64,000 nt of DNA from NCBI GenBank assembly GCA_023475225.1, contig JAMCVK010000008.1, forward strand, positions 13,018 to 77,017, in the 5' to 3' direction. The notes under the pieces are model-generated. The model was not told where the DNA came from. It saw only the letters and a list, made by a program, of their open reading frames with translations, and made no database searches. Source of the DNA: Chloroflexota bacterium. Its GTDB lineage: Bacteria > Chloroflexota > UBA6077 > FW602-bin22 > JAMCVK01. Positions 243 to 8,083 of the stretch are shown here, in pieces; within the stretch, counting starts at the first letter, position 1, and each line of letters begins with the position of its first letter. Position numbers and translations under genes: made by a program.

Positions 243-3200
243 TCACTGCGATACTTGATACACCTTCAGCACTTCATCCCCGTAGTGATTGATGACCTTG
301 ACAGCGATCTTCCCGGTCTTCGGTGGGTCGAACGGCCGGCTGACAGTGGAGTAGAGTGAGGCCCAGGCAACCTCGTCTATCTCAGCCTTGAGGGCCCGCT
401 TGAGCTTGTCGTAGGGTTCATCATCACCGCAGAAGTAGGCCTGACGCACAAAGAACGCCTCGTCATTGTAATCGGTGTCGATGAACCAGCAGGCGATGTC
501 ATCGGTAGAGTGACCACGCACCTGCCCGGTGGTGGGGTCATACACGTCCAGGCCCTTGATCTCCACCGTCAGCTTGCCGTCTTTCTGCTTCTTGACCTCG
601 ATGTCCGGCTCGCCGAAGACCATGAACAGGTTCCCCACCCCGGTCCTTTTCAGGAACTCATCGCCCATCTGGAGGTCAGGGTTAATCTTGGCGCTCAGCA
701 CCTTCAGCTTCCCATACCTCTTCGCCTCTTCATTCACATGGGGGTCGAAGGCAAAGCCGCAGACGATGAGCAGGTCAAAGCCAATCCCTCGGACCGCTTC
801 CTTGGCCGCCTCCTTTACCAGCTCCGCCCCCACCGTGCCATGCTCCGGGCCAATGCACACGGCGACTCGCTTCGCCTGGCCATTCCCCTCGTATTCGCCT
901 TCGCCGTGGATGTATAGCCCGGCGTAGGGCTCCAGGCGGTCAAACTTGATGCGCTCCTGCTTCTCATACTGCTGGACGCCCGCCTTCTTCAGGTTCTCCA
1001 GGACCATGGTCTCAAACTGGCCCGGGCCGGCACTTTTAGCCGCAGCTTCCTGGGTTTTGGGCACTGCCTGCTCAGCGGAGAGGACCCGGTGGGGGGAGAG
1101 GCTTTCTACGGTGAAGGGGCCGGTTACCCGAACCACCTTGTTCTCCTCGTAGGGCTGGTCGTAGAGGGTCTCGCTTTCCGCGTGCCGGGCGATGGCGGCG
1201 TCAATCTCCGCTCGGGTCATGCCCTCCTTGATGTCTGGGTTGTTGGCAATGGACTTAAGGGTGACGTGGGGCACCCGCCGGTAGACGAAGCCTTTCTTGA
1301 TGTCCCCCTCGGTAGGAGGCAGTGGCGAGGGCGGAGGCTGGTCCGCCAGCTCCACCTGCCTACGGATACCCTCAGGGGTATCCGCCAGGATGTAGTAGGG
1401 GAAGCGGGCGGACATCAGGCGGGTGCGGGCCAGGGCGATGGCCACCCGGCTGGTGTCGATGGTAATCCACCTGCGCCCCCACTGCTCGGCCACATAGGCC
1501 GTGGTGCCGCTGCCACAATTGTGCACCGCACACACTTCGGTGATGAATGAGTGAGCGTCCTCCACTTCGAGATCGTAGACCTCTTCTTCCGTCTGCTCAT
1601 ACGCCAAGTTGGTAATCTCAACGGGACGGCTATCGGGACCAAAGTACACGACATCGCCCACTTGCAACGAGTCCGCACGCCGCCACTGCCTGTAATGATC
1701 CTCGGAAGGTTGCGCCGCCTGGAGAGCCCCGCGGATAGTGGTGACCACTCCCTCCAATTGGTGTAGAACTTCGTCATTGGTGAACCGCAGAATATCTAAG
1801 CCATGCGCTTTGAGATAGGCATCCCGCTCCCGATCGTAGGCGCTGGCTTCCGAATTGAAATGAGTATCTCCGTCTACTTCCATCACCAGTCCGGCCTCCC
1901 ACGAATAGAAGTCGGCGATATAGAGGCCGATAGGATGTTGTCTCCGAAACTTCGCGCCCAGTTGTTCGCCGCGCAAGGCGCTCCAGAGGCGCCTCTCAGG
2001 AGGGGTCATCCCCTTGCGCAACGCTCGAGCATGCTGAAAGTGGACTATCGGCACGTGACGCCACGACCGCTCGGCGCCGTAGGTCAGGGGTCGCCGGCGA
2101 CACAGGACCCGATGATCAGCGGTGACCCACAAGGTTTGCGGACAGGCATCGTGCTGGATGCCGACCATTATCCCTTTGTAGGATCTGCGAATGATACGGA
2201 GAACTCGATGAGGCTCGCCGCCGTGGCCTAGGACGAAGTCGCCGGGTTTGAGGGATTCGATGGGGAAGAACCCCACCCCAACCCTCCCCGTCGACGGGGA
2301 TGGAGGCCCCACCCCAACCCTCCCCGACATCAGAGAGGGAGACGCTGCCCCGGCCTTCCCCAAACTTGGGGAGGGAGGCCCCACCCCGGCCCTCCCCGTC
2401 AACGGGGAGGGAGCTCTTTCGTTCCCCCCGTTGACGGGGGGATTAAGGGGGGCCAGAACCCGCGTGCCCTTCCGCACACAGGTGGGGTCCAGCACCAGGT
2501 CGCCAGGGTCAGTGGTCATGAGGAGGCAACGACTAATTACCCTTGTTGGAGTCTGAACCACAAATATCTTTTCTTCTCGCCGCAGGAAGCCGCCCATTGC
2601 TGTATCATCCCATGCGCTATCCAAGGAGCGGATTGGGTAATCGTCTGCAAACCTACGATAGAAGACGTTCTCACCCTTCCTCTGTATTCGGCCCGTTTTG
2701 ACCAGATTATTCAGTCCCTCAATAGTGGTAGACCAGTGTCTACCGGGTCGCGGAACAAAGTCCTTACCGTCAAACCTAAAGACGTAGGAACCTTTTTGAC
2801 TTTCACCTTGGGACGTTAAGTCTGTCAAGCCAAATCGTTTGCCGTCAGGAATTGCCTCGTCGCCGTCTAGCTGTTCTCTGGTTAATTGTACTGAGGTGCC
2901 GTTTGGTAGCATGACCCAGTCGTATTCTGTCCCATTAGAGGAAGTTCTAGGAAGGTGAAGGCGTCTGTACTTAAGGTGAGAGGAATCCTTCCCATACCAA
3001 AGTAGAAAGTTCGTTACGTTATCAATATAAATAGCACCTCTTCCTCCCGTGGTCCTAAAGGATATTTGACTTACAAAATTCTCACTCCCAAACACTTCAT
3101 CCATCACGCATCGCACCAGATGCACATTCTCGTCCCCAATCTGGACGAAGATGGAGCCGGTATCCGTCAGCAGGTCTCTTGCCACCACCAAGCGGTCCCG

Positions 3201-3842
3201 CCAGTAGGCCAGGTAGGAGTGGATGCCCAGCTTCCAGGTGTCGCGGAAGGCCCTTATTTGCTCCGGCTCCCGGGTGGCGTCCTCGGCCCTGCCGTCCCGC
3301 ACATCCCGCTTCCGGGTGGAGACCTGCCAGTTGGAGCCGAACTTGATGCCGTAGGGCGGGTCCAGGTAGACCATCTGCACCTGCCCCTTGAGGCCCTCCT
3401 TCTCGGCCAGGGAGGCCATCACCAGTAAGGAGTCCCCCAGGATCATGCGGTTGCTCCACCCCTGGGAATGGCGGTAGAAGTCTATGCGCTCGGAGAATTC
3501 TATGCCGTCGAAGTCCTCAAAGAGGCTGACCTGGCGGGGCTTGCCCTCAGCCTGCTCCCGGCGCAGGTCTTCAATGATGGCCCTAGGGTGGATGTGCTCC
3601 TGGATGTAGACGGGGACAGCGGGCACCTCCAGGTCGTGCCCGTCCTGCTCGTCCTTGCCCTTCCAGACCAACTGGGGGTCAAGCTCGGGCTTCCTGGGGT
3701 AGCGCAGGATGTATGGCGCCCGCTCTTCCTTCACCGCAAAGTCGGCCAGCTCCGCTGTGGGGATGTTGAGGCGCTTATCCTTGTGATGGGCTACATATTC
3801 AACCATTTTGTCTTGGCTGGTTGCTCTTCTCTTGCGTGCCAT
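243..3842 (-). CDS. mod: Type III restriction-modification Mod subunit (beta-class N6-adenine DNA methyltransferase) interrupted by an intein
   Basis: 1199-aa ORF. Motif IV DPPY lies at aa 161-164 (VYLDPPYGIKFGSNW). Motif I is reconstituted as LDPT/CGSGTT only after removing aa 455-775. The order motif IV then motif I is typical of Type III Mod. It is adjacent to a Res helicase-nuclease. Confidence 0.9.
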   Translation of the reverse strand: MARKRRATSQDKMVEYVAHHKDKRLNIPTAELADFAVKEERAPYILRYPRKPELDPQLVWKGKDEQDGHDLEVPAVPVYIQEHIHPRAIIEDLRREQAEGKPRQVSLFEDFDGIEFSERIDFYRHSQGWSNRMILGDSLLVMASLAEKEGLKGQVQMVYLDPPYGIKFGSNWQVSTRKRDVRDGRAEDATREPEQIRAFRDTWKLGIHSYLAYWRDRLVVARDLLTDTGSIFVQIGDENVHLVRCVMDEVFGSENFVSQISFRTTGGRGAIYIDNVTNFLLWYGKDSSHLKYRRLHLPRTSSNGTEYDWVMLPNGTSVQLTREQLDGDEAIPDGKRFGLTDLTSQGESQKGSYVFRFDGKDFVPRPGRHWSTTIEGLNNLVKTGRIQRKGENVFYRRFADDYPIRSLDSAWDDTAMGGFLRREEKIFVVQTPTRVISRCLLMTTDPGDLVLDPTCVRKGTRVLAPLNPPVNGGNERAPSPLTGRAGVGPPSPSLGKAGAASPSLMSGRVGVGPPSPSTGRVGVGFFPIESLKPGDFVLGHGGEPHRVLRIIRRSYKGIMVGIQHDACPQTLWVTADHRVLCRRRPLTYGAERSWRHVPIVHFQHARALRKGMTPPERRLWSALRGEQLGAKFRRQHPIGLYIADFYSWEAGLVMEVDGDTHFNSEASAYDRERDAYLKAHGLDILRFTNDEVLHQLEGVVTTIRGALQAAQPSEDHYRQWRRADSLQVGDVVYFGPDSRPVEITNLAYEQTEEEVYDLEVEDAHSFITEVCAVHNCGSGTTAYVAEQWGRRWITIDTSRVAIALARTRLMSARFPYYILADTPEGIRRQVELADQPPPSPLPPTEGDIKKGFVYRRVPHVTLKSIANNPDIKEGMTRAEIDAAIARHAESETLYDQPYEENKVVRVTGPFTVESLSPHRVLSAEQAVPKTQEAAAKSAGPGQFETMVLENLKKAGVQQYEKQERIKFDRLEPYAGLYIHGEGEYEGNGQAKRVAVCIGPEHGTVGAELVKEAAKEAVRGIGFDLLIVCGFAFDPHVNEEAKRYGKLKVLSAKINPDLQMGDEFLKRTGVGNLFMVFGEPDIEVKKQKDGKLTVEIKGLDVYDPTTGQVRGHSTDDIACWFIDTDYNDEAFFVRQAYFCGDDEPYDKLKRALKAEIDEVAWASLYSTVSRPFDPPKTGKIAVKVINHYGDEVLKVYQVSQ
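1728..2009 (-). other. DUF559 / Vsr-like (very-short-patch-repair-type) endonuclease domain inside the intein
   Basis: aa ~612-705: MTPPERRLWSALRGEQLGAKFRRQHPIGLYIADFYSWEAGLVMEVDGDTHF...DRERDAYLKAHGLDILRFTNDEVL. This matches the DUF559 pattern (E..LW..LR...FRRQ...DF......E.DG..H...D..R...L...G....RF.N.EV) as recalled. Confidence 0.7.
2271..2452. repeat. Cluster of GC-rich REP-like palindromes/direct repeats lying in frame within the intein ORF
   Basis: The 20-nt unit ccccaccccaaccctccccg occurs exactly at 2271-2290 and 2307-2326, with a 2-mismatch copy near 2379-2398. Palindromes: ccccgtcgacgggg 2286-2299, cctccccgt/acggggagg 2391-2410, ccccccg/cgggggg 2424-2441. The cluster encodes aa ~464-524 (PLNPPVNGGNERAPSPLTGRAGVGPPSPSLGK...GRVGVG). 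Confidence 0.7.
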
Positions 3843-3895: not shown

Positions 3896-4117
3896 CTAAT
3901 GAGACGCCTGGTAGATGACCGGACGGTAGCGTGGTGGAGGGATAGGCTTTCCCGTCTGGCGTGCCGCTTCCAGCCAGGCCACCTTGGCCCGCTCCAGCTC
4001 CGCCAGAGCCTGCTCAGGGGTCTCCCCGAAGGCAGAGCAGGACTCCAGGTCCGGGAGGTCAGCGATGTAGCCGCCATCCTCTTCACTGTAGAAAATATTG
4101 ATGTGGTAGTCGCCCAT
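3896..4117 (-). CDS. hicB: HicB-family antitoxin (short, UPF0150-type)
   Basis: 73 aa, MGDYHINIFYSEEDGGYIADLPDLESCSAFGETPEQALAELERA..., a typical HicB N-terminal fold sequence. Its ATG overlaps the hicA stop by 1 nt (TAATG). Confidence 0.8.
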   Translation of the reverse strand: MGDYHINIFYSEEDGGYIADLPDLESCSAFGETPEQALAELERAKVAWLEAARQTGKPIPPPRYRPVIYQASH

Positions 4118-4371
4118 TACTCATCCTCCAACTTTAGATTATACCGCTCCACCAGTCGCAGGAACTGCCGAATCTGGTAGGGCTTGGCTTCACCCCTAAC
4201 GGACTGGAGGTTGACCAGCTGGGCAATGTCGGGATGAGCGAAGATGTAGTGACTGCCTGACACGCGCACCAGGCGAAATCCGAAGCCCTCAACCAGGTTC
4301 CTCATATCAGCAAATGCCACGTTCTGTAATGCTCCCTGGGTCAAGCGTCTGAGCAGCGCTCTGCGGTTCAT
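4117..4371 (-). CDS. hicA: HicA-family mRNA-interferase toxin
   Basis: 84 aa with the HicA/YcfA-like core FGFRLVRVSGSHYIFAHP. The toxin-first order is typical of hicAB. Confidence 0.8.
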   Translation of the reverse strand: MNRRALLRRLTQGALQNVAFADMRNLVEGFGFRLVRVSGSHYIFAHPDIAQLVNLQSVRGEAKPYQIRQFLRLVERYNLKLEDE

Positions 4372-4374
4372 CGT

Positions 4375-7347
4375 TCATCGTGCCCTGGTGCGACTGGCAT
4401 CGTTGGCTTTCAGGAAAGCACGGATCAGGTTTTGGGCATCCCAGGGGTCTTGAATCTCCAGGAAGGCCCACCGCCCAAAGCCACCGTGGTTGTTGACCGC
4501 CGGCACCCACAGGGTTCTGGCGGTGTCTACCTTGGCCTCCTTATCCTTTTTACGTTCACCAGTCACCTCAATGACCAGGGTGAGCACTTCGCCCTGGGGG
4601 TCTCGGAGGCGGACAAGGAAGTCAGGCTCGTAGTTCTTCTCCTCCCCATTGAGGATATAGGGAATCCTGAAGCCCAGTCCCTGGTTCTTCACGTAGCTAA
4701 CCACCTCCTCCATCTCCTCCAGGGCCTGGGCCATCTTCTGCTCCCACGACCCGGTGTCCGCCACCACATGGCTCACATGGCACCTGTCCGGCCGGGTGAC
4801 GTAGACGGGTTTGGTGGTGTCAAAGTCAACGTAGCGGGTGGAGCCAAGGGTATCGTAGGGCCGCAGAATGGGTTTGAGCGCCCTGGTACCCTCTGTAGAA
4901 TGGACGATGGCCCGGTAGATTCGGTCGGCGGCATCGTGTGCCCTCTCATGGAGCAACAGAAGCTGGGGGAAGGTGCCGTCCTTACAGACCACGCACATTT
5001 CAAGCCACTCTCTGGTGATGCCCAGCACCTGGGGGAAAAGCCAGGGCTTGAGATTGCCCTGGTCATCCCGGAAGTATTTCTCCAGCACCAGCTTGGCCAG
5101 GAGGAAGGCAACCTCCTGAGTCCGCCGCCTGCGCAGGTCGTCCAGCGTGTGGATGCTCATCTCGCCAACGATGGGAGCATTCTCTGTCCTGGTGGGAATA
5201 TCGGCGGTGGAGAGGACTATCTTGGAGTCGTCGGAGAAGGCAGCACTTAGCCTTTCACCGGCGAAGTCATAGCGGTATCCCACCAGGCGGGGGAAGGTGA
5301 CCTCCAGGGCTATGCGCTCGGGCAGAGCACGGATCCGGGTTGGCATAGCACCCGGCCTGGGGTCGGTAGCCGAACCCGAGCAGGGAATGAAGGAGAAAGG
5401 CACGCCATAGACCTCAGCGTACTGAGGTTCAAACGCGCCGTAGTCGTTAGGCGCATAGCTGGTGCGGCGAAGGCCACGCCCGACCACCTGCTCACAGAGG
5501 AGCTGGGTGCCGAAAGCCCTCACCCCAAGGATATGGGTGACCGTGTTGGCGTCCCATCCTTCTGAGAGCATGGAGACGCTGACCACGCACTTGATGTTTT
5601 CACCCAGCTTGCCTGGCTTGCCGACTGTGTTCATCACTTCTCGCAGCATGTCCTCGTCGGTTAGCTGCTCTGGGTCGCGGCCGGGGAACCTGGCCCGATA
5701 CTCGGCCTTGAACTCTTCTATCTCAGCAGCGGCTATCTTCTTGAACTCAGGGCTCATCCCCTCGCCGCTCTCCAACTGCTCGCTGTCAATCAGGAGGGTG
5801 TTGGGGCGGGCTCGCCACCTGCCATTCTCTTCGTTGTCGAATACAGGGAGGGCGCCCGGAACCACTATCCTGGTGCCGTCTAAGGGTTTATCCCAGCCGG
5901 CGATATAGTCGTAGACCAGCTTGGAGACATTGGTATTGTTGCAGACGATGATGAAGACCGGAGGAGTCCCCTGTCGGTGAGACTCCCACTGCCGGTAATA
6001 TTTTTCGTAGTTGCTGTAAAGGCTGTGAAGGGCTCCCTGCAACTCGGCTGGAAGCTTGGGTTCACCTTGTACGGCCTCGGTGCCCCGGCCCTTCTTGGGG
6101 AGGGCGTCCCGAATGCTCATCCACAGGTTGCGATAGGTTGGCAGGTCTTGCCGCACCTGGTTGTCGGAGACGGGCACCCTGGGCACCTTCACGATGCCGG
6201 ACTCAATGGCGTCAATCAGCGAGAAGTCGGATATCACCCAGGGGAACAGAGTCCCCTCTGGATAGCCGGAGCCTCGCAGGAAAAATGGCGTTGCCGACAG
6301 GTCATAGACCACTTTAACCCCGAGCTTTGCCTTCACTGCCTCCAGGCCCGATATCCAGACTCGAGCCTCCTCGTCCCGCTTCTCAGCCTCCCTGCGCTCG
6401 TCTCCCGTTAGCCTGAGCTCTTCACCACCAACACGGCGGCGGTAGCAATGGTGGGCCTCGTCATTGATAACCAGGATGTTTCGCTTGTTGCCCAGCTCTC
6501 GGCAGACACGGCGCACCATCTCATCGGGAGTCTCCTTAAAGCCTCCAGCCTCTTCTCCGGATATGGCCAGGGCCTTGGTGAGCCGGGCCCCCTCGAAGCG
6601 CTCCCTCAGCAGGAAGGCGTGGAAATTGGTGATGATGATCTTTGCCTTACCAAGCTGCTGTATATTCTCCGGCGGGATGACATCTCGCAGGCGATAGTAG
6701 TTATCAGGGTCATTGGGGAGCAGGACACGCAGCCGATCTCTGATGGTTATGCCGGGTGTCACGATCAGAAATGAGTCCGAAAAGCGGGCATCCTGAGGGT
6801 TCGCCATCTTGTTCAAGGCATGCCAGGCGATGAGCATGGCCATGACCACTGTCTTGCCGCTACCGGTGGCCATCTTGAAGGCAATACGATAGAGCTCCGG
6901 ATTAGCCTCAGCGTTGGCCTGGCGCAGGTGGTTCTCTATCCAGGCGTCTCCGTATCTCTTGGCTACCTCTGTGATGTAGATAGCGGTTTCCAGGGCCTCA
7001 ATCTGGCAGAAGAACAGCTTCTTATCGCGCTCGGAGTTGCGCCAGTAGTCCAAGAGGCGTCGCGTAACTTTTGTGACTCCCTGGTAGCCACCCCGCCGCC
7101 ATATCGAAGCCCTGCTTCTAACCTGATTGATAAAGGTATTCTCTTGGATGCGGTCCTGGGTCCACTCCGTCTCGAAGCTCAGTTGCCTGCCCCTCTTTTT
7201 AGGAGGGGGGATAGGGATGAAGTAAGAGCTGATACGCCTCTCGTTGACTATCTCGTCGGTGATGCCATCATCAGAAAACTTAAAGTGGCGTGTAGGCTCT
7301 TCAAAAGGGGGGTTTAGAATGGGATTCTCTATGACAACATCTGGCAT
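4375..7347 (-). CDS. res: Type III restriction enzyme Res subunit (SF2 helicase plus C-terminal PD-(D/E)xK-like nuclease)
   Basis: 990 aa. Walker A is MATGSGKT and the DEAH box is NDEAHH. The C-terminal motif is YEPDFLVRL...VIEVTGERKKDKEAK. It starts 2 nt after the vapC stop. Confidence 0.9.
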   Translation of the reverse strand: MPDVVIENPILNPPFEEPTRHFKFSDDGITDEIVNERRISSYFIPIPPPKKRGRQLSFETEWTQDRIQENTFINQVRSRASIWRRGGYQGVTKVTRRLLDYWRNSERDKKLFFCQIEALETAIYITEVAKRYGDAWIENHLRQANAEANPELYRIAFKMATGSGKTVVMAMLIAWHALNKMANPQDARFSDSFLIVTPGITIRDRLRVLLPNDPDNYYRLRDVIPPENIQQLGKAKIIITNFHAFLLRERFEGARLTKALAISGEEAGGFKETPDEMVRRVCRELGNKRNILVINDEAHHCYRRRVGGEELRLTGDERREAEKRDEEARVWISGLEAVKAKLGVKVVYDLSATPFFLRGSGYPEGTLFPWVISDFSLIDAIESGIVKVPRVPVSDNQVRQDLPTYRNLWMSIRDALPKKGRGTEAVQGEPKLPAELQGALHSLYSNYEKYYRQWESHRQGTPPVFIIVCNNTNVSKLVYDYIAGWDKPLDGTRIVVPGALPVFDNEENGRWRARPNTLLIDSEQLESGEGMSPEFKKIAAAEIEEFKAEYRARFPGRDPEQLTDEDMLREVMNTVGKPGKLGENIKCVVSVSMLSEGWDANTVTHILGVRAFGTQLLCEQVVGRGLRRTSYAPNDYGAFEPQYAEVYGVPFSFIPCSGSATDPRPGAMPTRIRALPERIALEVTFPRLVGYRYDFAGERLSAAFSDDSKIVLSTADIPTRTENAPIVGEMSIHTLDDLRRRRTQEVAFLLAKLVLEKYFRDDQGNLKPWLFPQVLGITREWLEMCVVCKDGTFPQLLLLHERAHDAADRIYRAIVHSTEGTRALKPILRPYDTLGSTRYVDFDTTKPVYVTRPDRCHVSHVVADTGSWEQKMAQALEEMEEVVSYVKNQGLGFRIPYILNGEEKNYEPDFLVRLRDPQGEVLTLVIEVTGERKKDKEAKVDTARTLWVPAVNNHGGFGRWAFLEIQDPWDAQNLIRAFLKANDASRTRAR

Positions 7348-7349
7348 GG

Positions 7350-7796
7350 CTACCTCCCCACCTCAATCTCTCCTATCCATTTCACCAACTTAAAACTGGG
7401 GCTGGTTGCGCGATAGAATCGCTCATCCGCCGTCCACAACTCGCACCCCATAATGTCTGCCAGTGACAGATAGTGGTCGTCGTAAGCCGCTTCCTGACGC
7501 AATTGAGCTGCAAGCTCAATTGCTTTACGGTGAAGGCCACGGGGCTGCCTAAGCTCTATTCCAGCATTAAGTAAGCCGTCCAACAGAGTAGTGGCGGCCA
7601 CTACCGAGATTTCTCCCCGTAGCACTCGACGGTAGAGGGCATTGGCTACCTCAACCGGCATGAGATAAGGAGCCACAGGTTGAATGCCAGCCCTTGCCCA
7701 GGTGCGGGCAAGGGCCAAAGCCCTGTCGGTATGAACCTCGTTCACCAGCCACTTAACAGCTAAGCTGGCATCTATCACAACGGACCCATTCATCAA
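7350..7796 (-). CDS. vapC: PIN-domain toxin (VapC family)
   Basis: 148 aa. It starts VVIDASLAVKWLVNE (PIN N-terminal acidic motif), with conserved D/E later (YDDHYLSLA, WTADERF). It overlaps the upstream antitoxin by 4 nt. Confidence 0.85.
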   Translation of the reverse strand: MMNGSVVIDASLAVKWLVNEVHTDRALALARTWARAGIQPVAPYLMPVEVANALYRRVLRGEISVVAATTLLDGLLNAGIELRQPRGLHRKAIELAAQLRQEAAYDDHYLSLADIMGCELWTADERFYRATSPSFKLVKWIGEIEVGR

Positions 7797-8083
7797 GTCT
7801 CCGCCCTCGCCGCCCTGGCTTCGCGGATTAGCTCCGCCGAATCTCCAGGAACCTGTCGCCCTCCAAATACTGCGGCCTGAAGCGAAGACAGGCGATTAAG
7901 AGCTTCCTCACCGAAAGGCAGAGATTTAGCCTCTTCTGACTCATCCTGGGCCAGCTCCTTCTCTATGGCAGTAAGGCAGTACCGGCGCATGCTGATTCCC
8001 TTCAGAGCTGCTATCACCTTTAGTCGACGCTGCAAGAGGGGGTCCAGGTCAATGGTGAGTCGTTTCCTCTTATTGGCTTCCAT
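7793..8083 (-). CDS. Ribbon-helix-helix type antitoxin paired with VapC
   Basis: 96 aa, KRLTIDLDPLLQRRLKVIAALKGISMRRYCLTAIEKEL (RHH-like). It is translationally coupled to vapC. Confidence 0.7.
   Translation of the reverse strand: MEANKRKRLTIDLDPLLQRRLKVIAALKGISMRRYCLTAIEKELAQDESEEAKSLPFGEEALNRLSSLQAAVFGGRQVPGDSAELIREARAARAET

Follow-up and report, generated by a model that had tools for sequence, protein, structure and literature searches.

A putative mobile class-1 intein with a DUF559 nuclease domain in motif I of a Type III-like Mod methyltransferase from a Chloroflexota bacterium

The stretch of DNA analysed here, referred to as the window, comprises 64,000 nucleotides (nt) from a Chloroflexota bacterium and carries on its minus strand the mod gene of a Type III-like restriction-modification (R-M) operon. 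The Mod methyltransferase encoded by this gene is interrupted in its S-adenosylmethionine (AdoMet)-binding motif I by 321 additional residues, which raises the question of what this insert is, whether an intact enzyme can be made from such a gene, and how the insert came to lie in this place. From comparison of sequences and predicted structures we regard it as probable that the insert is a mobile class-1 intein, situated in a res-hicAB-mod operon, that would splice and most likely home by means of a DUF559 nuclease domain. The initial annotation of the locus described a canonical intein; this holds for the class-1 set of splicing residues, but the description missed both the nuclease domain (intein amino acids (aa) 149–253) and an insert of hairpin repeats (intein aa 13–66). 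The coordinates of all features are collected in Table 1.

The insert in motif I of Mod and its Hint fold

The translation of mod reads ...GDLVLDPT up to the insert, which opens with C455VRKGTRV, contains the sequence T574ADH577 and closes with VCAVHN775, after which the methyltransferase resumes at C776. The insert, Cys455 to Asn775, lies in frame between DPT and CGSGTT, with codon 455 at nt 2480–2478 and codon 775 at nt 1520–1518, and its placement at nt 1518–2480 by the initial annotation is confirmed to the base. Motif I is thereby split between aa 452–454 and aa 776–781, and motif IV (DPPY) precedes it in the protein. Excision of the 321 residues in silico leaves a protein of 878 aa. The Pfam model N6_N4_Mtase (PF01555) matches the precursor over aa 155–453 (profile positions 1–188 of 221, 79.2 bits) and the excised protein contiguously over aa 155–483 (profile positions 1–218 of 221, 99.1 bits), in agreement with the earlier claim that removal of the insert recreates motif I. 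The assignment of the host as a Type III-type Mod beside res is likewise upheld by the PADLOC model MTase_III (PDLC03632), which matches Mod with an E-value of 3e-262. An identical protein in NCBI is entered as 'MAG: DUF559 domain-containing protein [Chloroflexi bacterium]'.

Among 5.8 billion clustered proteins we found more than 100 homologues that lack the insert (843–941 aa) and six full-length ones that have an insert at this position; 113 of the 120 best matches, proteins of about 870–880 aa, contain no DUF559. In an alignment of 14 sequences, the seven intein-less homologues have one gap, exact to the residue, where DP[TA] meets CGSGTT, and six others have their insert at the identical point; the clean 321-residue gap that had been anticipated is therefore present. 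The extein is collinear with the intein-less enzymes over its whole length, with 69–86% identity outside the target-recognition domain (TRD). The cysteine at position +1 is native to the Mod family, as the intein-less homologues read DPTCGSGTT, and the corresponding motif-I DNA of the closest intein-less allele (L001/P0007) reads ...GACCTGGTGCTGGACCCTACC / TGTGGGAGTGGCACCACC... across the insertion point.

The residues on which class-1 splicing depends are all present in the insert: C1, T120, H123, D303, H320 and N321 in intein numbering, and C776 at position +1. In an alignment of 36 relatives of the insert, block A reads C-V-R-K-G-T, block B L-W-x-T-A-D-H, block F V-Y-D-L-E-V-E-x-x-H-S-F and block G C-A-V-H-N, followed by C. 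The splicing residues are near-invariant in these relatives and are missing only where a copy visibly shows decay elsewhere too, so that the catalytic set first noted in this one sequence proves to be conserved in the family. AlphaFold2 modelling of the intein with this alignment gave a mean pLDDT (predicted local distance difference test) score of 85.6 and a predicted TM-score of 0.76. Searched against the PDB with Foldseek, the model matches more than 30 intein, bacterial intein-like and Hedgehog structures with probability 1.0 and TM-scores (TMt) of up to 0.74, including gp41-1 (6QAZ, TMt 0.73, root mean square deviation 2.9 Å) and the Mtu RecA mini-intein (TMt 0.70–0.73; 0.73 for 2IN0); further Hint matches are the Ssp and Npu DnaB, Pho RadA, PI-SceI and KlbA-type inteins. 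The family profile aligned with solved inteins at E 1e-7 for Mja KlbA and 1e-4 for the RecA mini-intein, the C-terminal lobe aligns to the C-terminus of PI-MtuI, and the NCBIfam model TIGR01443 (intein_Cterm), which has a cut-off of 15.6, is matched at 29.4 bits. The evidence from TIGR01443, the profile matches and Foldseek is far beyond chance, and the insert is almost certainly an intein.

Splicing of this copy is also quite likely, judging from its intact residues and reading frame. By the established chemistry of class-1 inteins, an N-S acyl shift at Cys1 (Cys455) would be followed by trans-thioesterification to Cys776, cyclisation of Asn321 (Asn775) and an S-N shift, which would yield the 878-residue Mod with an intact motif I together with the free 321-residue intein of about 36 kDa. 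The unspliced precursor would probably be inactive as a methyltransferase. A further cysteine, Cys317 (nt 1530–1532; EVC317AVHN), lies four residues before the C-terminal junction and is kept in at least 90% of the family; it adds to Cys1 and the +1 Cys and might place splicing under disulfide or redox control. A foreign origin of the insert was sought in base composition, but the GC content of the intein (0.56–0.67) is no mark against that found across the gene (0.46–0.66).

The DUF559 nuclease, the hairpin-repeat loop and the distribution of the intein

Between blocks B and F, the usual position of LAGLIDADG or HNH endonucleases, the intein carries a DUF559 domain of the PD-(D/E)XK superfamily, matched by PF04480 with 103.5 bits against a gathering score of 20.6 (E 7e-30, profile positions 5–108 of 109). 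The domain is 38% identical to NGO0050 (3HRL), with E-values of 1e-16 by sequence and 8e-31 by profile, and the best structural correspondences are to 3HRL (TMt 0.85) and to the catalytic domain of I-Bth0305I (3R3P, TMt 0.76, 23% identity). All 36 members share sixteen nuclease residues without variation, E201, D203, H207 and D216 (EVDGDTH...D) among them, and as a group these are more conserved than the splicing residues. The four named residues follow the order of the EDxHD motif and are putative equivalents of its residues in I-Bth0305I and Vsr. No DNA-binding modules of the NUMOD type are detected by Pfam, and the nuclease is flanked directly by the two Hint lobes. It is reasonably likely that DUF559 is the homing nuclease of this intein. 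In PF01555 methyltransferase genes without the intein, the domain would most likely cut or nick the conserved DNA of motif I, and repair of the cut site would copy the intein in; targeting of this kind, which we infer from the distribution of the element, would explain why the intein sits at the same site in divergent methyltransferases of many phyla.

When one genome was scanned for each GTDB species, 57 loci were obtained from about a dozen phyla, with members in Chloroflexota, Poribacteria, Cyanobacteria (Microcystis, Kovacikia), Brocadia, Nitrospira, Bacteroidota, Armatimonadota, Deltaproteobacteria, Hydrogenedentota, Latescibacterota and others; one of the carriers is the cultured Microcystis sp. 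T1-4 (L017). In every locus in which the junction could be located it is at the same motif-I site, while three or more divergent PF01555 methyltransferase subfamilies serve as hosts, one of them with a C-extein of the type CGSGTT[LA]AVAEKLG; one host is fused to an Mrr nuclease domain. Full-length precursor ORFs (open reading frames) with intact junctions and similar inserts are found in at least 21 of the homologous loci. The exteins nearest to that of the window (identities outside the TRD) lack the intein (P0007 86%, P0012 85%, P0014 82%), and the nearest intein-bearing relative has 80% extein identity and the others about 70%. Among close relatives the intein diverges faster than the extein (70 vs 80% and 55 vs 71% identity). 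For distant hosts the intein is in many pairs more similar than the extein (63 vs 43% in L005, 54 vs 28% in L006 and 56 vs 40% in Microcystis L015), which indicates, at the level of sequence, that the intein is mobile and horizontally transferred. By its sequence the Hint N-terminal lobe is a small and specific family, matching 51 of 1.84 billion cluster representatives at E-values up to 1e-10. A phage origin was considered, but a scan of IMG/VR gave just two distant (35% identity), unrelated inteins and no close relative.

The second unusual part of the intein is the loop between strands β1 and β2. In its DNA a first hairpin, TCCCCCCGTCAACGGGGGGA, precedes a tandem series of about four 36-nt modules with the pattern CCTCCCCG-NNNN-CGGGGAGGG-YYGGGGTGGGG, relative to which it is inverted. 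Tandem Repeats Finder reports a period of 36 nt repeated 4.0 times at 2271–2413, and palindromes lie at 2286–2299, 2394–2407 and 2426–2439 (six matches vs 0.06 expected). The RNA of the hairpin array folds with −112.9 kcal/mol (z = −2.6). The encoded peptide, NPPVNGG...PSPLTGRAGVG...PSPSTGRVGVG, is of low complexity and is predicted to be disordered, with pLDDT below 50 for intein residues 16–66.

Hairpins occupy the same loop in 32 of the 32 homologous inteins in which both the N-terminal junction and the end of the loop could be located, at 12.1 per kb vs 0.6 per kb in the remainder of the gene, and the repeat-encoded part of the loop ranges from 20 to about 190 residues (60–588 nt). The 6-nt core of the hairpin varies between genomes. 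In 10 of 34 inteins, a set that includes the window and L002, the core of the first hairpin is the exact reverse complement of the later cores (GTCAAC/GTTGAC, GACATC/GATGTC, GTAAAC/GTTTAC, GTGAAC/GTTCAC, GTGGAC/GTCCAC and GTGAGC/GCTCAC), and another handful match approximately. Hairpins with the same or a near-identical core recur elsewhere in several genomes, in frame in other surface loops of the Mod extein and in intergenic DNA; their density is 0.16 per kb in the flanks vs 5.8 per kb around the loop. From this recurrence the hairpins are probably small palindromic repeats, dispersed and specific to the genome, for which this loop of the intein is a hot spot; they would have lodged in it in frame, where insertions are tolerated. 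Such hairpins outside the loop were located in L018 (9995–10060), L019 (4896), L011 (4541), L040 (3251 and 7348–7420), L041 (7286–7370), L025 (7079–7165) and L046 (7000–7060), and in L040 and L025 the core outside the intein is the same or nearly the same as that of the intein in that genome. Within the window itself, tblastn and pattern searches found no second copy of the Hint or DUF559 domain and no hairpin modules outside the intein, so the repeats are not a locally dispersed family there. Rfam gave only a chance-level match to CrfA for the array (E 0.41) and nothing that reaches its gathering score in the whole window, and no tRNAs were found in the window.

Short imperfect palindromes rich in GC, frequently in inverted doublets, make up the repeats of the REP (repetitive extragenic palindromic)/REPIN type and the small dispersed repeats of cyanobacteria; both have genome-specific variants, are scattered through intergenic DNA and are tolerated in genes. 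The hairpins described here may be likened to these repeats as GC-rich palindromes, in their inverted doublets, in their specificity to the genome and in their intergenic and intragenic positions; they differ in being translated within an intein loop, in their tandem amplification with a 36-nt period and in their recurrent association with DUF559, and no RAYT was seen.

The association with DUF559 extends beyond the intein. In at least seven of the 14 free-standing DUF559 proteins inspected, translated modules form the N- or C-terminal tails (PxPxxGEG...), and together these suggest that DUF559 and hairpins may constitute a mobile cassette in their own right. Examples of free-standing DUF559 proteins with hairpin-encoded ends are P0188, P0190, P0195, P0201 and P0220. 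A cassette of hairpin, DUF559 and hairpin lies in frame, with no intein, in a tsaB-like gene (L062, 2829–2853 and 3234–3275), and a similar one lies ahead of the tRNA-binding domain in what appears to be a fragmented metG (L064, 2501–3472). The translational attenuators of phage type were also considered as a model for the array and were rejected, since those are AT-rich hairpins in the 5' untranslated region that hide the ribosome-binding site (Dassa 2009), whereas the modules here are translated, GC-rich and far from the nuclease domain.

The loop is also the site of changes in several relatives. Frame changes inside the hairpin insert occur in L008, L016, L018, L026, L054 and L055, with runs of G6–7 and C6–8, and L026 and L054, two Poribacteria species with 92% nt identity, share a common frame shift with both halves of the gene open; possible explanations are a pseudogene, an assembly error, phase variation or gene splitting. 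In L033 an ORF of 419 aa on the opposite strand (4714–5973), which by eye resembles the transposase of an insertion sequence (IS), lies in the hairpin loop and parts block A from the remainder of the intein by 1.4 kb. Homologue ORFs that start right after the repeat insert prompted the idea of a natural split intein of the S1 type. The data do not support it: these cases are frameshifts in overlapping open frames and, in L033, an IS insertion, and inspection of L026 and L054 found no obvious start codon for the downstream half.

Competing explanations for the insert

Several observations weigh against an active, homing intein. The Pfam models Intein_splicing (23.9 bits vs 35.8, over profile positions 121–155 in the C-terminal lobe) and Hint_2 (22.6 vs 28.4) remain below their gathering scores, although we regard both matches as real; the Hint and intein search suggested by the initial annotation therefore succeeded for the Hint fold (AlphaFold2, Foldseek) and for TIGR01443, and fell short for these two models. 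The 54-residue disordered insert right after block A could hinder folding and splicing or make them slower. NUMOD modules like those of I-Bth0305I are absent from the nuclease, and Vsr is itself a nickase, so that a double-strand break is not assured. Many copies are decayed: exteins are truncated, the terminal HN has become HD, HE or HS, frames are shifted, or an IS has entered the loop. The fate of the element is thus often a dead gene, as the late phase of a homing cycle would lead one to expect. Such decay of relatives, the unusual length of the disordered insert beside block A and the sub-threshold Pfam scores could together be taken to mean that the insert is a dead remnant, mod being effectively a pseudogene or the insert being kept in the mature protein. 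We consider this improbable, as all catalytic residues are intact and the 3.6-kb ORF is open, the extein remains collinear with and close in sequence to the intein-less enzymes, Res and the entire operon are intact, and the homologous loci with full-length precursors keep their junctions as well. Still less credible is a permanent accessory domain, that is, a methyltransferase-nuclease fusion that is never excised. The NCBI and JGI pipelines label the protein simply as DUF559 or Vsr plus methylase, but the insert splits the FxGxG-type AdoMet loop, the nearest homologues lack it with a residue-exact gap, and it is wrapped in a Hint fold with the complete set of splicing residues.

A splicing intein might also act as a switch, with conditional (for example redox-dependent) splicing and/or frame switching at G/C runs turning the R-M system on and off. 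Type III mod genes are classic phase-variable genes, Cys317 accompanies Cys1 and the +1 Cys near the C-terminal junction, and six homologous loci change frame in the hairpin insert, two Poribacteria keeping both halves open; however, the longest homopolymer runs in the window copy are 6 nt, the 36-nt period keeps the frame, and the frameshifts could be decay or assembly error, so we give this reading little weight. The more serious alternative, though still rather unlikely, is that the intein splices while DUF559 is not, or is no longer, a homing endonuclease; it might then be inactive, nick DNA in some other role, for instance mismatch processing of the Vsr kind, or serve the hairpins rather than the intein. 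JGI labels the homologues 'very-short-patch-repair endonuclease', recognisable DNA-binding modules are missing by Pfam, and DUF559 is found with the same hairpins at the ends of free-standing genes and in in-frame cassettes without an intein (tsaB, tRNA-binding domain). Set against this, no part of the element is better conserved than the nuclease residues, which do not vary even in otherwise decayed copies; the fold matches a proven homing endonuclease; and an intein that is more similar than its exteins in divergent hosts, while its site is fixed, carries the signature of homing. A role in Vsr-type repair also sits poorly with the product predicted for a Type III Mod of the β class, N6-methyladenine, which gives no T:G mismatch. 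Finally, the nuclease rather than the Hint domain could be the primary selfish agent, an unlikely reading in which DUF559 proteins are mobile homing-type nucleases that travel with GC-rich hairpins of about 36 nt. They would then use three vehicles, namely the intein, free-standing hairpin-flanked genes and in-frame cassettes in housekeeping genes, and the array would be a functional part, either a substrate of the nuclease (REP/RAYT-like) or an expression or phase switch of the R-M system, and not passive junk. We retain the mobile, splicing intein with a homing DUF559 nuclease as the preferred explanation.

Known systems and the host operon

Inteins in PF01555 methylases, with LAGLIDADG nucleases, are known from mycobacteriophages and other actinophages (Kelley et al. 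2016, PMC5050341; PMC9957025; bioRxiv 10.1101/2025.01.02.630785). The initial view of a methyltransferase as an unusual host therefore has to be narrowed, and stands in so far as we found no report for a cellular Type III Mod. The actinophage inteins share with the present one the Pfam family of the host, class-1 or class-3 splicing, a patchy distribution and horizontal transfer between divergent methylases; they reside in orphan phage methylases and carry LAGLIDADG, whereas the present host is a cellular Mod of a res-mod system with a DUF559/Vsr-like nuclease. Vsr-like EDxHD nucleases have been described as free-standing genes between the halves of split inteins ('fractured genes') and in group I introns (Dassa 2009, PMC2677866; Taylor 2011, PMC3239194). 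I-Bth0305I and its EDxHD relatives resemble the present domain in the Vsr-type fold, the putatively equivalent conserved E/D/H/D residues and the association with inteins, but they are separate or intron ORFs with an N-terminal NUMOD, mainly of phages, while the domain here is a DUF559 without NUMOD that lies in frame in a contiguous intein. A 2025 survey of actinophages states that VSR-like nucleases were previously known only with split inteins and adds antisense-encoded ones (bioRxiv 10.1101/2025.01.02.630785).

PI-SceI and PI-MtuI have the same order of Hint N-lobe, endonuclease and Hint C-lobe, the same splicing residues and likewise a site in a conserved active-site motif; the present intein differs by a PD-(D/E)XK/Vsr-like nuclease in place of LAGLIDADG or HNH and by the additional disordered, repeat-encoded loop after block A. 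NGO0050 and the other free-standing DUF559 proteins are close to the central domain in sequence and fold, but they stand alone, at about 100–150 aa and with no assigned function, whereas the domain here is embedded in a Hint domain. In the open-access literature we found no contiguous intein with an in-frame DUF559/Vsr-like nuclease, and no Type III Mod with an intein; a Thermosynechococcus genome paper mentions a DUF559-containing gene in passing in its intein section. What sets this intein family apart is the class of its nuclease, the type of its cellular host gene, which is new, and the unusual loop with its repeats.

If the proposed reading is correct, PD-(D/E)XK/Vsr-like DUF559 would join the nuclease families fused in frame inside contiguous inteins, and the intein would offer the best indication yet of what DUF559, a huge family that is uncharacterised, does. 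With the motif-I DNA of PF01555 methyltransferases as the natural target, the biochemistry would be directly testable. An element present in at least 57 species and labelled only 'DUF559 domain-containing protein' also implies that intein surveys miss a whole family. The loop after block A, which tolerates 20 to about 190 residues, could be useful for intein engineering, as it is presumably close to the S1 split site used for split inteins with a short N-fragment. With a self-splicing element in Mod, on which both protection of the genome and guidance of restriction rest, R-M activity would depend on a post-translational step, which is of relevance to the establishment of R-M systems after horizontal transfer and to regulation by conditional splicing.

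Table 1. Positions of the intein, its parts, the host gene and the neighbouring genes in the window
Feature	Position (nt)	Strand	Remarks
Mod precursor ORF	243..3842	-	1199 aa = 878-aa methyltransferase + 321-aa intein
N-extein, aa 1–454	2481..3842	-	motif IV DPPY and variable target-recognition region; ends ...GDLVLDPT
Motif IV DPPY, Mod aa 161–164	3351–3362	-	in N-extein
C-extein	243..1517	-	begins at +1 Cys776 of motif I, CGSGTT (nt 1500–1517)
Intein, 321 aa, class 1 (Cys1 ... His-Asn / +1 Cys)	1518..2480	-	clean gap, AlphaFold2, Foldseek, TIGR01443
Block A, CVRKGTRV (Cys1 nucleophile, strand β1)	2457..2480	-	pLDDT 97 for residues 1–10
Hairpin-repeat insert, β1-β2 loop, intein aa 13–66 (54 aa)	2283..2444	-	Tandem Repeats Finder, palindromes, AlphaFold2
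Hint N-terminal lobe	2061..2282	-	β strands pLDDT 96–98; profile match to Mja KlbA intein, E 1e-7
Block B, T120-A-D-H123	2112–2123	-	within Hint N-terminal lobe
DUF559 (Vsr-like, PD-(D/E)XK-superfamily) nuclease, intein aa 149–253	1722..2036	-	PF04480
Hint C-terminal lobe, blocks F and G (VYD303LEVEDAHSF ... C317AVH320N321)	1518..1715	-	
hicB-like gene	3896–4117	-	HicB_lk_antitox 24.5 bits, just under cut-off
hicA-like gene	4117–4371	-	Pfam HicA_toxin 33.1 bits
Res subunit, 990 aa	4375..7347	-	upstream of mod, same strand

The operon on the minus strand has the order res, hicA-like, hicB-like and mod. Res is matched by the NCBIfam model NF046055 (BPTD_3080 family restriction endonuclease) with 1213 bits against a cut-off of 800 over 967 of 970 positions, and by the Pfam helicase model ResIII, with a weak match to RE_endonuc; its matches to the PADLOC model REase_III are weak and partial, which makes 'Type III-like' the safer label for the system. 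In Type III systems Res needs Mod for recognition of DNA. On this ground failed splicing would probably disable restriction together with methylation and without self-restriction, which softens the earlier argument that protection from the cognate Res depends on splicing. The intein-less locus L001 has the order res, hicA-like gene, an ORF of 73 aa and mod, so that the toxin-antitoxin pair appears to be a stable part of the R-M cassette, at least there; the intein-bearing locus L002 has res, a 73-aa ORF without a Pfam match and mod, with no recognisable hicA. Directly upstream of res, two small overlapping ORFs of 148 and 96 aa (7350–8083, minus strand) resemble by eye a PIN/VapC-type toxin and a ribbon-helix-helix antitoxin, with no match in NCBIfam.

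Within Mod the TRD is far more variable than the rest of the extein, with 27–40% identity to homologues, so that the specificities of these enzymes differ while motif I, the target of the intein, stays constant. At the level of DNA, the TRD of the window copy (nt 2550–3080, Mod aa 255–430) has about 50% identity to L001, and its flanks have 80–89%. The same pattern of low identity in the TRD and high identity in the flanks is seen for L026 and L054, and swapping of TRDs between conserved flanks is apparently frequent in this Mod family.

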